Shown here piece after piece: positions 3,768 through 13,526 of a DNA stretch of 13,526 nucleotides. Source of the stretch: a virus. Position 1 is the first letter of the stretch, and every line of letters begins with the position of its first letter. The notes beneath the pieces were generated by a model. That model searched no databases. It saw nothing but the letters and a program-made list of their open reading frames with translations, and was not told where the DNA came from. The stretch is from the UHGV virus genome UHGV-1806156; one strand, 5' to 3'. A program made the position numbers and the translations under genes.

Positions 3768-4004
3768 ATGAATACCTACGAAAAGATTTATCAAAAACTG
3801 GTTAAGGACTCCGAAGACACGCCCGAAGGGGTGACAGTAGGTCACCTGCCAGAGGCAGCGAAAGAGGGGGCCACCATTATTAAAAGTGGCTCCCACACAG
3901 AAGGCCTCTCAATCGAAGAGCTGGCGGAGAAATATAATATTGATAAAGAGGCCCTGAAAAGGGCTATTTCATTATCAAAATCTTTAAGACAGGGCGAGGT
4001 ATAA
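3768..4004 (+). CDS. Hypothetical protein, 78 aa, translationally coupled between the acidic protein and the tape measure gene
   Basis: Starts 1 nt after the preceding stop and ends 1 nt before ATG 4006. Confidence 0.45.
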   Translation: MNTYEKIYQKLVKDSEDTPEGVTVGHLPEAAKEGATIIKSGSHTEGLSIEELAEKYNIDKEALKRAISLSKSLRQGEV

Positions 4005-4005
4005 A

Positions 4006-6153
4006 ATGGCAATGAAGGAAGTAGCCAGACTAACAAACGTTATTTACTGGGACTCTGATAAATCCTCCTGGCGAAAAGAAGTTAAACGGCTTGAGGATTA
4101 TAAAAAATCCTGGAAGAAAGCTACCGACGATATAGCTAAAGCTGATTTTAAATCTAATCAGGCTGTGCTCAGAACACAAAGAACACGCGCTAAGGTGGAA
4201 GAGCAGATAGCCAGAGCTCAGAGGAAACAACAGGAAGCACAGAAGAAACAACGTGCTCAGGCTGTCAGCCGTCTGACCGGGGGCAACAATGCCGAACTTA
4301 ACTCTATGCGCAAGTTCTACCAACAACAAGCCAGAGAAGCCGCCAGACAACAAAAACTGTTAGATCGTAGTGTTGGAGATGTTCAGCACAGAAAAGCACG
4401 TGTAGGGGCCAACAGTGCACGAATCAGCAGCATGTTTGATGGCTCCCTGGTTGCTCAGTTCCAGGGGCGCATTCAAAGAGTTAATGCTGATTATGCTAAA
4501 GGGGCTATAAACCTGCAGACCTATAATCAGAGGATGGCCCGACTCAGATCTGAAATGAAGATGGCAACAGCCGAAGCCGGAAAATTCCAGAGCAGACTAG
4601 ACAGAGCTGCGGCCGCAGGCTCCAGGCTGCATGACAACCTGGGGAAACTGAATTCCACACTGGGCAAGATAGCCATTGGCCTTACTGCCGCTGGCTGGGG
4701 TGTTCAGCGTGCTGTTAGTGGTGCTATGGGTAGCCTTGCAGATCGCAACAGTGCTTATTTCGGCTTAATGTCACAGAACAAGGATGATAAATCAAAAACT
4801 GATCAGCAGATGGCTTTTATCAAGAACACAGCCTACACCTACGGGATGGATCAGCGTGAGATGGAAGGCGGCTACATGCGCTTTGCTGCAGCTACCCCCA
4901 CCATGAAGGAATCTGATAAGCAGGCTCTCTTTGAGGCTATGGCTATTAAAGGCCGCTCAGTGGGTGCTACTGGCGAGCAACAGAACAGGGCGCTTGTTGC
5001 GGTCCAACAAATGGCTTCAAAAAATAAAGTCATGGCGGAGGAGCTGCGTGGGCAGCTGGCAGAAGCCTTTGCAGGCTCACAACAGGACTTCCAACAGGCC
5101 GCTATTGATGCCGGAATCATCAAAAATACCCAGGAATTCGATAAAGCCCTTAAAGATGGCAAAATCACCCTGGACAAGCTACTTCCTTCCCTAGTGAAAA
5201 TTTGGGGTGCTGCAAAAGAAACTAAAGCTTTTGCTGAATCCATGAAACAGCCAGAAGTAGCAATGCAGCGCATGAAAAACAGCTTTAACGAGCTGGCGAT
5301 TCAGTTTATGGGTGTTGTGGATCCTGCGGATGGCGTTATTAGCTTATCTGAATCTCTGATCTCCATCTTTGAAGACCTCACCACTGATATGGACGGCAGC
5401 GGGAGCGCGGCAAAACAGTTCGGTGAGGCAGTCGGGTCTGCCATGCGTGAGATCATGTATTGGGTAGGCTTCGCTAAGGGATATATTGAGGTCAAGGCTA
5501 AAGAGTTCGGCATGACCGGATCAGAGGTTGGCGAGCTTATCGGGAAACTGGTAGTCGGCTTAGCTGGTCTGAAAGTTATTACCACACTGCTTTCCCCTCT
5601 AACCGGATTTGTTTCACTTGTCACCCAACTGATTTCTCTGATAGGCAAGATTCCAGGTCTGGGCAATCTCGTTAAGGGTGCTGGCGGGGCAGTCGCTGGA
5701 AGCCCAACAACAGCATTAGCCGCTGGCAGTGCCGCAGGTGTGGGTGTTGGTGTCGCTGGCGCACTAGGCGCTAAGACGGTAGGTGAGAAGTTCAGAGGAT
5801 GGATGCAAAGCAAGGCTGATCAGTTCGGGGAGTGGGCTAAATCTAAAGGCCTGCTTAGCGATGAACAGGACGCTATGACCAAACCGGGGGCCTATAACCA
5901 TAGCTACATCAACAAGGGAGCTTCCTTTAATCCATATCCAACCATTAGCCCTTCACGTCCTACTCCTAGCACTGGTACGGCTATTCAGAATGGCGGATAT
6001 CAACCAGTCCAAGTAAATGTAGCCCCACAAGGTGAGATTTCCGGCAAATGGGAGATAACCATCGATGAGGGGGGAATTGCCAGGGTGATCCAGAAGGAAG
6101 TTAGCGATCAGTTGGATTGGAAAGCCACACAGGAATCTAACCAGCTTTTCTAA
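4006..6153 (+). CDS. Phage tail tape measure protein-like, 715 aa
   Basis: Long Q/R/K/A-rich helical N-terminal region, a central segment that reads like a tape-measure domain (AAATPTMKESDKQALFEAMAIKGRSVGATGEQQNRALVAVQQMASKNKVMAEELRGQLAEAF), and a Gly/Ala-rich hydrophobic block (LAGLKVITTLLSPLTGFVSLVTQLISLIGKIPGLGNLVKGAGGAVAG...). Recognised by eye, not by search. Confidence 0.6.
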   Translation: MAMKEVARLTNVIYWDSDKSSWRKEVKRLEDYKKSWKKATDDIAKADFKSNQAVLRTQRTRAKVEEQIARAQRKQQEAQKKQRAQAVSRLTGGNNAELNSMRKFYQQQAREAARQQKLLDRSVGDVQHRKARVGANSARISSMFDGSLVAQFQGRIQRVNADYAKGAINLQTYNQRMARLRSEMKMATAEAGKFQSRLDRAAAAGSRLHDNLGKLNSTLGKIAIGLTAAGWGVQRAVSGAMGSLADRNSAYFGLMSQNKDDKSKTDQQMAFIKNTAYTYGMDQREMEGGYMRFAAATPTMKESDKQALFEAMAIKGRSVGATGEQQNRALVAVQQMASKNKVMAEELRGQLAEAFAGSQQDFQQAAIDAGIIKNTQEFDKALKDGKITLDKLLPSLVKIWGAAKETKAFAESMKQPEVAMQRMKNSFNELAIQFMGVVDPADGVISLSESLISIFEDLTTDMDGSGSAAKQFGEAVGSAMREIMYWVGFAKGYIEVKAKEFGMTGSEVGELIGKLVVGLAGLKVITTLLSPLTGFVSLVTQLISLIGKIPGLGNLVKGAGGAVAGSPTTALAAGSAAGVGVGVAGALGAKTVGEKFRGWMQSKADQFGEWAKSKGLLSDEQDAMTKPGAYNHSYINKGASFNPYPTISPSRPTPSTGTAIQNGGYQPVQVNVAPQGEISGKWEITIDEGGIARVIQKEVSDQLDWKATQESNQLF

Positions 6154-10248: not shown

Positions 10249-10268
10249 TACTGTATATTATATCAGTA
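10249..10268. promoter_or_regulatory. LexA (SOS) box-like palindrome TACTGTATATTATATCAGTA
   Basis: CTG-N10-CAG architecture with flanking TA and an AT-rich core, as in gammaproteobacterial LexA boxes. Lies in the large intergenic region between the capsid operon and the small-peptide operon. Confidence 0.45.
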
Positions 10269-10546
10269 TTTACTCACATTGTCAACACCCTGATTATATA
10301 AATTCTAATAATTAGCGTAGTAACGGTATTTTCAGACTGCTATCAATCCCATCAATACGTCATCTCATCGCATCTATCATAACTTTTTCATTCGTGATAG
10401 ATATCTTTTGATCAATATCAATGTTTTCCGGGGATTTGCCCGGCTATAGTTCGAATCAAGGAAGGGGAGCATTGATAGAGACACCCAAAGGGGTGACTGA
10501 AAGTCACCTGGCATAGCCAGTGAAAGCACCCAACCGAACAAACAAA

Positions 10547-10564
10547 TCAACTTCTCGCAAAAGG
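10547..10564 (+). promoter_or_regulatory. Conserved leader motif TCAACTTCTCGCAAAAGG, 26 nt upstream of ATG 10573
   Basis: Repeated with the same spacing upstream of ATG 11115 (11089-11107); a third variant sits in the hairpin loop at 6281-6296. Confidence 0.4.
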
Positions 10565-10572
10565 TGATAGTT

Positions 10573-10695
10573 ATGGGTATCAAGAACAGTGCCAGCGCAT
10601 GGCAAAAGGCCAGGTTTCATCACCCACACATTGTTAAGGCAATTGAGGTGGTTGGAGTTTTAGCCCTGATGTTAGCTCTGTGTGTGGAGGTGTGA
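10573..10695 (+). CDS. Small hydrophobic peptide, 40 aa (MGIKNSASAWQKARFHHPHIVKAIEVVGVLALMLALCVEV)
   Basis: AAGGTG RBS before ATG 10573; C-terminal hydrophobic helix. Below the ORF-track cutoff. Confidence 0.35.
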   Translation: MGIKNSASAWQKARFHHPHIVKAIEVVGVLALMLALCVEV

Positions 10696-10696
10696 G

Positions 10697-10777
10697 ATGG
10701 GCAAAGGAGGCAAAGCATTTTTAATAGGTCTGGCTATCCTGGATGTTCTACTAATCATGATTAAGCGGAGTTTATGA
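10697..10777 (+). CDS. Small hydrophobic peptide, 26 aa (MGKGGKAFLIGLAILDVLLIMIKRSL)
   Basis: ATG 10697 starts 1 nt after the previous stop, with AGGTG just upstream. One predicted TM helix and a basic C-terminus. Confidence 0.3.
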   Translation: MGKGGKAFLIGLAILDVLLIMIKRSL

Positions 10778-10796: not shown

Positions 10797-11057
10797 ATGA
10801 CGGGGGCTAAAGATATCAGGAGACTGAGGGAAGAGCTGATAGCTGAAATTAAAACTAAGGCAAAGCAAATGGAGATAGCCGCACAAATGGATGTAGCGGA
10901 ACAGATGTACAAGATGGTTGAGGAGGGAACGCCACGACAGGTTATCGCTAAAACCTTCGGTGTGGGGATCGCCACCGTGCACAGAAGGCTGAAAGCATAT
11001 GCTGACTACCACAATATCGAGAGAAAGGAGGATGGGAGATTCAGGAAAGCTAAATGA
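10797..11057 (+). CDS. Small DNA-binding protein with a Hin/resolvase-type C-terminal HTH, 86 aa, no recombinase catalytic domain
   Basis: GAGAGGAG RBS before ATG 10797. C-terminus EEGTPRQVIAKTFGVGIATVHRRLKA closely matches the Hin invertase HTH; the N-terminus is a short charged helix only. Confidence 0.55.
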   Translation: MTGAKDIRRLREELIAEIKTKAKQMEIAAQMDVAEQMYKMVEEGTPRQVIAKTFGVGIATVHRRLKAYADYHNIERKEDGRFRKAK

Positions 11058-11088
11058 TGTAAACGGTCCAACAGGTTACTAACTTAAT

Positions 11089-11107
11089 TCAACTTCTCGC
11101 AAAGGGG
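11089..11107 (+). promoter_or_regulatory. Second copy of the leader motif (TCAACTTCTCGCAAAGGGG), 26 nt upstream of ATG 11115
   Basis: 15/15 identity with the copy at 10547 over TCAACTTCTCGCAAA, same distance to the start codon. Confidence 0.4.
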
Positions 11108-11114
11108 TACCACT

Positions 11115-11702
11115 ATGAACATTAAAACTATCATTGCAGCCCTCACCATTGCCTTTAGTGCCAACACCGCAGCTATTGATGTAGGGGCCGTAAAAGATGC
11201 ATCTTGTGCTGATAAACTGGCGGCACTTGATGCGGGATTCGATGCACCCCAGGGCTATCAAATGGGGCTATCTCTTAAAAATATTATTCTCCCCATGGAA
11301 TCTGGCGCTTATGTATACGGAGCGATAGGAAAACTGGAGAAGCCGGAAATTGACCTGCAGGGTGTGAGAGCGAAGATCACTAAAAGAAATGAAAGCCTTT
11401 GTGATGTAGCTGAAATAGCTTTCATGTCAGACGATGAAAAATCTATTTTAGTCTTTTGCAAAGATAGCGATGATAATGATCGCTTCTTTAAGATCACCCA
11501 CAACAGGCCAATCTCTTTCTACTCTAATGCTACTATGGGCGCGGGTATGCAGTGGCTGAAGAGAGCTAAATTAACTGAGATCGACATTGAAAAAGAGGCC
11601 AATGCAGGCAGTTATGGATTCTGGAAAGGCTGGACTAAATACACGTTCCAACAATGCGGCATCGATAGTCAGGCCTACGACAACGGATTTTGGTTTTTCT
11701 AA
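11115..11702 (+). CDS. Secreted or outer-membrane protein with N-terminal signal peptide, 195 aa
   Basis: N-terminus MNIKTIIAALTIAFSANTAA has the basic/hydrophobic/A-x-A shape of a Sec signal peptide. C-terminus ends in aromatics (GFWFF), as many outer-membrane beta-barrels do. No family recognised. Confidence 0.55.
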   Translation: MNIKTIIAALTIAFSANTAAIDVGAVKDASCADKLAALDAGFDAPQGYQMGLSLKNIILPMESGAYVYGAIGKLEKPEIDLQGVRAKITKRNESLCDVAEIAFMSDDEKSILVFCKDSDDNDRFFKITHNRPISFYSNATMGAGMQWLKRAKLTEIDIEKEANAGSYGFWKGWTKYTFQQCGIDSQAYDNGFWFF

Positions 11703-11722: not shown

Positions 11723-11750
11723 AGGGGGCCATCACGGCCCCTTTTTATTT
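11723..11750 (+). terminator. Rho-independent terminator after the signal-peptide gene
   Basis: GC-rich stem GGGGGCC (11724-11730) / GGCCCC (11736-11741) with 5-nt loop, followed by TTTTTATTT. Confidence 0.55.
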
Positions 11751-11800
11751 ATCCCCTATTTAACCCCTATTTAATGGGTATTTAATGCCTATTTATTGAT
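11746..11800. repeat. Five tandem 11-bp units of form TATTTAANNNN (helically phased A/T tracts)
   Basis: TATTTATCCCC, TATTTAACCCC, TATTTAATGGG, TATTTAATGCC, TATTTATTGAT read directly; an 11-bp period suggests bent DNA or phased binding sites. Confidence 0.5.
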
Positions 11801-13063
11801 TTAATCCGTTTTATGCCACAACCGCCCGGTTGACAGAGTAAGATAGAGTGTGTAACCCTCTTTCGTAATACCAATAAAATCAATAGTTTAGCTCAATTGG
11901 CCTTTTCTCTATTTTTGTCAAATTTAACATACCCTCAAAAACTGCAAAATCTGGCTGCAAGATTATCTGCAGCTGGATTTCTTGCGCCTCAATTTGTGGT
12001 ATCACCCTGACTAGTTTGTGCATAAATTGAACAGTTTTTAACATTTCCTCCTCACCTGGTAACCACACAAAAAGCTAAAAACGAGGCACAGATAATCTTA
12101 GAGGCCTGTTTTCTTGTTATCACTCTGGTAACGTCGTAGAAGTGATTTTGATGAAAGATGACCTACCCTATTACACCCCCATTTTTTGTTATCACAATTG
12201 CATCCTGTGCGGTGTATGGCTATGTGCTGAAAGCGGTCTTATGTGTGGGTGTCAGAAATATCCATTAGCGGTATTAATACCCGTCGGAGATTCGTCTGAG
12301 GTGCCAGGCAGGCGCTCCCCCACCTCCCTTTTTTCTTCTAACAATTCTCAAATATCACACCACTGCCCACCACGTTGCTATTATGTTAATTCTTAAGCTT
12401 TGCTGTATGTTGTGCACATTATTTATTCAGGTGGCTGTACGTAAATTCTGTGCCCACTGATCATGATTTTTAAATCAGATTTTGTAGTGCGCTTTATTAG
12501 TGTAGATAAGATCTATTATGTTAAATGCATCTCTCTCAACACTTAAAATCAATGACTTAGAGGTTAGGATGCACTAACACCCCACACAGCACATTAGACA
12601 TATAGATGTCTATACCCCACATTTTTGATTGTTTTGTAGTCATTCCCCTGATCATTTAACCAGTATAGTTTGCTCCCTGCAGACCACAAAATCGGAATTT
12701 ACATCTGATTAACATAATCTGTTAGCATGATCACCATTACCCACACAACAATAACCACATGTAAGCCTCTTCAGGCAATTTATCGGCGTGTTGGTGTGAA
12801 CAGTCTTTCATGTTCTTTATGTATTCATTGTCCTGTGTGAGGGAAGGATGGACTGCCCCAGGGGCCATACTTATGATGCCCGGTCAACATACCTGTCGAT
12901 AAAATCAAAGGGTGTTGATCTGCATATTTCCCACACATGAGAGGAAATCAAAGCAAAGAGAGAGGAGAGAGGTTTGTTAGTCAAAATAGGTCAATAAGGG
13001 TGTATTTCCACACAGACATGATGAGATAACCTGTCGGTATTTCCTACAACTCTTGCACATACC

Positions 13064-13341
13064 CCGGAAGATTTTTCCGGTGTCTCCCACCTGTGAAGAA
13101 TTTTCACACCTGTAAATCCATACAGCACGGTAAAAACTACCGCACCACCTGTGAAAATATTTTACTACTCCCTTTAGTCATACCCCTTTCAGTCATACTC
13201 AGGCACCACACCCCGGTAAATATTTCCCTACCACCCCGGAGAATTTCTCCGGTGTCCAAGCTGTATCCAATACATACCCCGGAAAATTTCTCCGCACTAC
13301 TACGGAAGATTTCTCCGGTGTACCCCGGAAGATTTCTCCGA
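13064..13341. repeat. Iteron-like array of at least 8 copies of a 17-bp quasi-palindrome (consensus about CCGGARRATTTCTCCGG)
   Basis: Copies at 13064-13080, 13236-13252 (perfect palindrome CCGGAGAATTTCTCCGG), 13279-13295, 13302-13318 and 13325-13341, the last three spaced exactly 23 bp apart. Related variants at about 13094-13108, 13150-13164 and 13214-13226. Confidence 0.6.
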
Positions 13342-13428
13342 CTAATAAATAAAGTAATAGACCACACAATAGATCCCCCCTAACCCCCAAGGGGAATGGG
13401 GAGGGATCAGAGAGTGGGGAAGGTTTTC

Positions 13429-13526
13429 TAAGGGAAAAGCTTAACCCACAAATGAAAGCCTAAAGAGCATGAGCGACTCTTCAGGCAATCTGTGTGGGGA
13501 ACATCGGAGCAGTATGTGAAGTATGA
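13429..13526. repeat. Right copy of the 98-bp direct repeat
   Basis: Matches 1-98 with one mismatch (C at 13482 vs T at 54). Confidence 0.9.

Follow-up and report, generated by a model that had tools for sequence, protein, structure and literature searches.

A selected, predicted periplasmic protein encoded in an exchangeable slot of a satellite-like Escherichia coli plasmid

The open reading frame at 11115-11702 of the window (by which we mean the whole stretch of DNA that was analyzed, 13,526 nucleotides) is very probably an exported, periplasmic, swappable cargo gene that encodes no virion protein and is under selection. The original prediction, made from the sequence alone, had described a signal-peptide protein ending in FWFF and placed last in its operon; the 195-amino acid frame, its Sec-type N-terminus and its final residues, QAYDNGFWFF, confirmed this description. 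We also put forward this protein, referred to as allele A, as a candidate periplasmic superinfection-exclusion or defense factor, a tentative reading that we favor without holding it to be probable. The features of the locus are as follows.

10547-10563, plus strand: leader motif copy 1, TCAACTTCTCGCAAAAG, 9 nt before the ATG of the first open reading frame of the operon
10573-10695, plus strand: 40-amino acid open reading frame with a C-terminal transmembrane helix (hydrophobic segment, residues 19-40), first gene of the operon
10697-10777, plus strand: optional 26-amino acid hydrophobic open reading frame, carried by 8 of 12 relatives and lacking in the other 4
10797-11057, plus strand: 86-amino acid HTH_7 (resolvase-type helix-turn-helix) regulator, Pfam PF02796, E=3.6e-6
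11089-11105, plus strand: leader motif copy 2, TCAACTTCTCGCAAAGG, which includes the Shine-Dalgarno sequence and forms the 5' boundary of the swappable cassette
11115-11702, plus strand: cargo gene, allele A, 195-amino acid precursor of a predicted periplasmic protein
11115-11174, plus strand: signal peptide, residues 1-20, rule-based, with predicted cleavage between TAA and ID; AF2 pLDDT is about 25 there
11181-11330, plus strand: hypervariable patch 1, residues 23-72; pN 0.36 and pS 0.79 (saturated) between subtypes A1 and A2
11331-11570, plus strand: conserved core, residues 73-152, a beta-meander with C96, C115 and the loop CKDSDDNDRFF; domain shared with allele C
11571-11654, plus strand: hypervariable patch 2, residues 153-180, saturated at both kinds of site between A1 and A2
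11655-11699, plus strand: C-terminal tail, residues 181-195; C181 and QAYDNGFWFF (186-195) are invariant, and residues 184-185 vary
11723-11750, plus strand: intrinsic terminator, the 3' boundary of the cassette, conserved after alleles A, B and C

The ATG at 11115 is the first in-frame start after a stop, and the frame closes with TAA. By rule-based analysis, the N-terminus has the n/h/c layout of a Sec/SPase I signal (MNIK, TIIAALTIAFSA and NTAA, followed by the mature ID), with a charged n-region, an h-region, T at -3 and A at -1; cleavage is predicted after A20. Residues 5-21 form the sole hydrophobic segment of the protein, and the mature product of 175 residues is acidic (pI 4.9) and hydrophilic (GRAVY -0.29) and contains four Cys. 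The lipobox [LVI][ASTVI][GAS]C is absent from the end of the signal peptide, and the first Cys, residue 31, lies in the context D-A-S-C, 10 residues past the h-region. An overlapping or antisense gene at the locus was also considered and rejected, the substitution pattern fitting the plus-strand frame that starts at 11115.

The Shine-Dalgarno sequence AAGGGG (11102-11107) lies 7 nt before the cargo ATG and is embedded in a 17-nt leader motif, which has two matches in the window compared with 0.04 expected by chance. The two copies, at 10547 and 11089, differ by one mismatch, the motif RNA is predicted to be unstructured, and copy 1 is conserved in all relatives. On the 3' side, a hairpin starts 20 nt after the cargo stop codon; its stem (11723-11743, GGGGCC/GGCCCC) and T run have a predicted energy of -15.2 kcal/mol. 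No sigma-70-like promoter was found in the 57-nt gap before the cargo gene and no strong one upstream of the operon. The GC content of the cargo gene is 0.437 and that of the element 0.446, with no compositional signature of foreign origin in the gene, and no Rfam match was obtained in the window. About 2.6 kb downstream of the cargo gene contains no convincing genes. Directly after the terminator, at 11755-11805, stand five 11-bp-phased CTATTTAA-like units in the series CCCCTATTTAA CCCCTATTTAA TGGGTATTTAA TGCCTATTTAT TGATTTAA; their copy number varies between relatives, and they may be a protein-binding array, for example a partition or packaging site.

The window is a single circle of 13,428 bp; positions 1-98 recur, apart from one mismatch, at 13429-13526. 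The plasmid is a member of a family of E. coli plasmids that are non-mobilizable and 13.2-13.7 kb long. This family occurs in 7 of 5,426 complete E. coli genomes, each time as a plasmid. Isolates carrying such plasmids were obtained from humans (blood, urine and stool), pigs, cattle and chickens. We found no description of this plasmid family in the literature. The element encodes a Rep-O/HTH_36-like initiator, a tape-measure protein (TMP), a Dit-like tube initiator, a neck/tail-completion protein and an HK97-type major capsid protein (MCP), together with several small open reading frames without a family. Its structural genes are most similar to those of the Vequintavirinae, which are rV5-like virulent myoviruses of about 137 kb; identity to Vequintavirus MaxTheCat is 50% for the tube initiator, 45% for the neck protein and 24% for both the TMP and the MCP. 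Comparison with the MaxTheCat region, Pfam and PHROGs gave no match to a terminase, portal, sheath, tube or fiber, leaving four open reading frames without assignment, and no lysis genes were recognized in the element. At 13.4 kb, and with an incomplete set of structural genes that are rV5-like, the plasmid looks, from its sequence, like a plasmid-borne satellite of rV5-like phages and not a prophage. The proposal of lysogenic conversion, which presumes a prophage, accordingly does not suit a satellite-like 13.4-kb plasmid.

Two further observations concern the carrier. Five copies of a 23-29 nt repeat with the palindromic core CCCCGGAAGATTTCTCCGG lie at 13060-13349 with spacings of 172, 43, 23 and 23 nt; they are probably iterons or an origin, and both this region and the Rep gene (1000-2000) vary between relatives. 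One relative, L002 (NZ_CP043822.1, 39,610 bp), is a circular trimer of the 13.5-kb unit in which one of the three copies is rearranged; this may reflect a genuine multimer, which would bear on headful packaging, or an error of assembly.

The operon runs from the 40-residue transmembrane peptide through the 26-residue transmembrane peptide and the HTH regulator to the cargo gene. All 12 relatives examined have kept the 40-residue protein. Neither membrane peptide has a family match; these operon-opening peptides may be toxin-like or holin-like. The regulator directly upstream of the cargo gene is 91-100% identical across relatives, regardless of which cargo allele follows it, and IMG/VR contained no relative of its gene that we could find. 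Outside the operon, a 50-nt repeat (80% identical) occurs at 3815-3864, just upstream of the TMP gene, and at 10477-10526, upstream of the cargo operon. Side by side within it are the hairpins GGTGAC-N5-GTCACC and CTGSC-N3-GSCAG, the latter with a compensatory G/C swap between the copies; the position of the repeat varies in relatives, and a role as an operator or as an RNA element is possible. The minus strand carries, at 10257-10285, a perfect sigma-70 promoter (TTGACA-17-TATAAT, extended TG), which points toward decoration-like and capsid genes. If it is functional, so strong a consensus promoter would presumably have to be repressed in the carrier state; the adjacent 86-residue HTH protein is a possible repressor.

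We compared 17 distinct related elements, anchored on the HTH gene. The position downstream of this gene was occupied in all 17 and never empty: 10 carry A (subtypes A1 and A2), 5 carry B and 2 carry C. B is a multi-pass membrane protein of 172-173 residues, with a tail rich in Gly, Arg and Lys and two or more strongly hydrophobic segments, and C is a protein of 236 residues with an N-terminal membrane anchor, ending in SPMK. Across elements with A, B and C, the DNA is colinear up to the cargo ATG (...TTCAACTTCTCGCAAAGGGGTACCAYTATG) and becomes colinear again at the terminator (CAGGGGGCCATCACGGCCCC-T5), about 10-30 nt after each stop codon. Because the flanks are colinear around all three alleles, the leader and terminator are features of the backbone and only the open reading frame is exchanged. 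The original prediction had credited the gene with a leader motif and a terminator of its own; both are present, but both belong to the backbone and flank whichever allele is there. By sequence comparison, then, the slot is a precise open reading frame replacement cassette and not an optional insertion.

The idea of accessory cargo held up well, since the gene occupies a variable slot with conserved flanks: a fixed position with alternative genes among close relatives, as in an accessory hotspot. The stricter term moron did not fit. With the slot filled in every element, no promoter of its own and a GC content equal to that of the backbone, the gene is a swappable cassette and not a classical moron. 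The element has about six variable (mosaic) modules, of which the slot is one. The last ~260 residues of the TMP (window 5400-6000, its C-terminal third) occur as three types 46-70% identical to each other. No association was found between the cargo allele and these TMP types, which reassort independently, and there is thus no sign of a matched pair in which an element's own particle escapes its own block.

Alleles A and C are, by sequence, distant homologues that share one domain. BLASTP gave E=4e-7 over residues 105-159 of A, hhalign gave a probability of 73%, and the joint alignment keeps C96, C115-K-D, N121, R123, W147, E155 and Y167-G168. In C, the shared domain follows two hydrophobic segments joined by a Lys-rich loop, and in the variant P0018 it follows a signal-like N-terminus. 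The positive-inside rule places the shared domain of C in the periplasm, in agreement with the signal peptide of A, so that the earlier suggestion of a secreted protein was supported by both the signal peptide and the topology of its distant homologue.

A more diverged lineage, L021, whose proteins are only about 40-50% identical, has a B-type gene at the same slot (its B homologue is about 40% identical), lying after the leader core TTAACTTCTCGCAAGAGG and before a terminator. The leader core AACTTCTCGCAA and the Shine-Dalgarno sequence are kept in this lineage (L021 7760-7800; window 11080-11114). The presence of a B-type gene at the same slot there suggests that B may be the ancestral occupant. 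The L021 leader begins TTAACTT, a start that we take to resemble the "epsilon" translational enhancer of T7 gene 10. The 36-kb structural region of MaxTheCat does not contain the leader motif, so nothing points to a helper late-gene signal. A B-type cargo homologue, 47% identical, was also seen among many small open reading frames at 7538-8020 of L020, an 18.9-kb contig that carries Dit-like, TMP, Lambda_Kil and HNH genes as well and could represent a larger relative, either element or phage; a tblastn search of the phage collection with this homologue was negative.

A word-indexed search identified homologues of allele A in 12 clusters, each of 195 residues, on contigs of 13.4-14.4 kb from E. 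coli or Shigella. A HMMER profile search of 1.84 billion representatives returned only the family itself, two fragments and P0015, a repeat-rich Mycoplasma-like lipoprotein. The last was rejected as a relative, its 37-bit score being inflated by four repeated stretches.

Subtype A2, although only 66% identical to A1, keeps all four Cys, the signal peptide and the last ten residues, which are invariant throughout the family; the conservation of the tail extends over all 13 sequences, this subtype included. Between A1 and A2, the core (residues 73-152) has dS 0.55 and dN 0.09 (dN/dS 0.165), and the codons of the signal peptide and C-terminus are almost identical at the DNA level. Position 32 is A, V, T, S or E among proteins otherwise 92-98% identical, and patch 2 contains a mini-cassette at residues 175-180 (KYTFQQ, TAISE[KQR] or GYTFQQ). 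Within A1, pN/pS (dN/dS) is about 0.1-0.3, a range that points to purifying selection on the allele A gene. The A1/A2 pattern reads as a recombination mosaic, and these substitution data indicate that allele A is a real, selected gene with arms-race-like mosaicism.

Two AF2 models of allele A, with low to moderate confidence (pLDDT 53 and 63), have an alpha+beta fold with 4-5 helices and a sheet of 5-6 strands. The blocks of highest pLDDT (65-76) lie within the core, residues 74-86 and 135-146 fall below 50, and the C-terminal tail has low pLDDT; according to the models, the tail is probably flexible and exposed. The protein is probably disulfide-bonded. No match to allele A was obtained in Pfam or PHROGs at E<=10, in NCBIfam, by tblastn against 50,697 phage records at E<=1, by Foldseek of the model against BFVD at E<=0.001, or by sequence in the PDB. 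Alleles A, B and C and the small peptides had no match in PADLOC-DB (2023 library) at E<=1, and allele A had no sequence or fold similarity to T4 Spackle or to the periplasmic lysozyme inhibitors Ivy and PliC/MliC. The expectation that this is neither a virion nor a replication function was thus upheld by the searches of Pfam, PHROGs, NCBIfam, BFVD and the PDB, and no virion family appeared in the profile search. The two outcomes named beforehand as refuting the original prediction, lack of a predicted signal peptide and a clear virion family match, were both absent. We conclude that the allele A family is an orphan, a new protein family; as far as sequence can tell, allele A is not a lipoprotein, a virion protein or a catalogued defense protein. 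The kind of feature, by contrast, is familiar: phage-derived elements are known to have variable slots for envelope or exclusion functions.

What the slot does is best explained, in our view, by exclusion at the envelope. Three kinds of envelope protein are interchangeable and confined to the element, and A carries hypervariable patches; for these reasons, interference with something arriving from outside seems the most natural function. Alleles A, B and C would share one task, carried out in the periplasm or at the inner membrane and most likely consisting in blocking productive entry of an incoming phage or competing elements. Allele A, for example, might bind a tail-tip, lysozyme or tape-measure component in transit through the periplasm; the conserved beta-core would then be the scaffold, the two hypervariable patches would determine which target is bound, and the flexible, invariant aromatic tail, GFWFF, would tether the protein to the membrane or to a partner. 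Against this stands the lack of any homology or fold match between allele A and known exclusion or defense proteins. Moreover, exclusion needs expression in the carrier state; given that no promoter was found, expression in the carrier state and expression after helper infection are both possible.

A bolder form of the proposal, which we consider rather unlikely as a whole, would make the slot a module that controls entry, belonging to a class of plasmid-borne satellites of virulent rV5-like myoviruses that has not been described before. Unrelated envelope open reading frames (periplasmic A, polytopic B and anchored C) would be swapped bare between a fixed leader and terminator, and A would be a new periplasmic gatekeeper whose patches recognize tail-tip or tape-measure proteins and whose GFWFF docks to the membrane, to a PDZ protein or to a BAM component.

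Several other functions were weighed against exclusion. That each slot allele is an envelope protein would also suit a modulator of lysis or release, in which the cargo, perhaps with the two tiny transmembrane peptides, acts from the membrane or periplasm on the holin, antiholin, endolysin or spanin system of the helper and shifts the timing of lysis in the element's favor. There are precedents: PLE LidI disrupts lysis inhibition by ICP1, and T4 RI has a periplasmic antiholin domain. The constant filling of the slot and the retention of B in L021 suggest a needed function and fit a core life-cycle function, such as lysis timing, equally well as they fit defense. The small transmembrane peptides that open the operon, the lack of recognizable lysis genes in the element and the lack of an evident carrier-state promoter all point the same way. 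However, searches of Pfam and PHROGs revealed no similarity to holin, antiholin, spanin or endolysin families, and the interchange of soluble, multi-pass and bitopic proteins is more easily explained by different blocks to entry than by a single holin partner. The hypervariable patches, too, suggest an external, fast-evolving target, and on balance we regard a role in lysis as unlikely. A conversion factor expressed from the plasmid to the benefit of the carrier cell in its animal host, of the Bor/Lom serum-resistance, adhesion or virulence type, would agree with the predicted export of allele A and with the blood, urine, stool and livestock origins of the plasmids. Yet the protein has no lipobox as in Bor, no barrel as in Lom/Ail and no Pfam match, and a Sec signal by itself leads to the periplasm and not to the cell surface. 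Since the family occurs in this plasmid type alone, and inner-membrane proteins take its place in a third of the elements, a surface-exposed virulence role is hard to reconcile with the data, and we think a host-benefit function very unlikely.

Two readings turn on the C-terminus. The W-F-F-COOH tail might mimic the C-terminus of an unassembled outer-membrane protein and bind the periplasmic PDZ protease DegS or DegP, thereby inducing the sigma-E regulon and lowering porin and receptor levels. The complete conservation of QAYDNGFWFF down to the 66%-identical subtype and the low pLDDT of a probably exposed tail agree with such a trigger, as do the activation of AlgW by the C-terminal WVF of MucE (PMC8545111) and the recognition by DegS of YxF at the C-termini of outer-membrane proteins (PMC3582582). 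But Trp at -2 is reported to be accommodated by AlgW and not by E. coli DegS (PMC8545111), B and C end without a WFF motif (C in SPMK), and a structured domain of 175 residues with variable patches exceeds what a tail carrier needs; envelope-stress signaling is thus a very unlikely purpose for the gene. The original prediction had also entertained an outer-membrane protein, and a beta-barrel that masks or replaces a phage receptor is what the C-terminal Phe, together with a signal peptide and a mature size of 175 residues, similar to that of 8-stranded barrels, would bring to mind. This idea is now largely refuted, and we give it hardly any credence. No barrel was predicted, and a structure search with the models matched none; both models have helices beside their sheet, and four Cys are invariant. 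In the last ten residues, G at -5 and D at -7 stand where a beta-signal needs alternating hydrophobic residues, so that only the terminal Phe fits, and the homologous domain of allele C is anchored in the inner membrane.

If exclusion at the envelope is correct, the slot holds three interchangeable single-gene envelope blocks to phage entry that are absent from current defense catalogues, and the natural series A1, A2, B and C would be well suited to mapping recognition. The swapping of open reading frames alone between a common leader and terminator amounts to a simple natural expression slot. The carrier, which looks like an undescribed plasmid satellite of the Vequintavirinae, is a more surprising object than the cargo gene itself. 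Vequintavirinae are used in phage therapy cocktails, and an exclusion gene on such plasmids could affect the phage susceptibility of clinical E. coli.

Known systems share parts of this arrangement. The lambdoid morons (lambda bor and lom, HK97 gp15) are, like the cargo gene, extra non-virion, envelope-targeted genes with a terminator at the end of a unit, and HK97 gp15 is a membrane exclusion protein. Unlike them, the cargo gene has no promoter of its own and no difference in composition, and it is replaced rather than present or absent; it is neither Bor-like, for want of a lipobox, nor Lom-like, for want of a barrel. PLE LidI, from the Vibrio cholerae satellite of the lytic phage ICP1, is likewise a satellite-encoded envelope protein and acts on the infection cycle from the membrane, but it is a small transmembrane protein, whereas allele A is predicted to be soluble and periplasmic. 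MucE of P. aeruginosa resembles allele A as a signal-peptide periplasmic protein with a C-terminal aromatic-x-Phe (WVF compared with WFF), and its function resides in the C-terminal tripeptide, which activates AlgW (PMC8545111); it is much smaller, however, and has no homology to allele A.

Swappable antiviral hotspots are carried by satellites and temperate phages, and the P4/P2 hotspots and PICI accessory regions resemble the slot in having conserved flanks around rapidly exchanged, unrelated genes at one position (PMC13586616). The slot differs from these hotspots in that a single open reading frame is swapped between a common ribosome-binding leader and a terminator, in that its alternatives are all envelope proteins, none matching PADLOC, and in that it is always filled. 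With regard to function, there are parallels in T4. T4 Imm is an inner-membrane protein that serves exclusion. T4 Spackle is periplasmic and inhibits the gp5 tail lysozyme (PMC7677548); it resembles allele A in being small, soluble and Sec-exported to the periplasm and in being encoded by a phage-derived element. Spackle is helical, of about 75 residues and encoded by a lytic phage genome, whereas allele A is alpha+beta, of 175 residues and plasmid-encoded, without similarity in sequence or fold. Spackle and Imm together, a periplasmic and an inner-membrane protein with one exclusion purpose, parallel alleles A and B of the slot.
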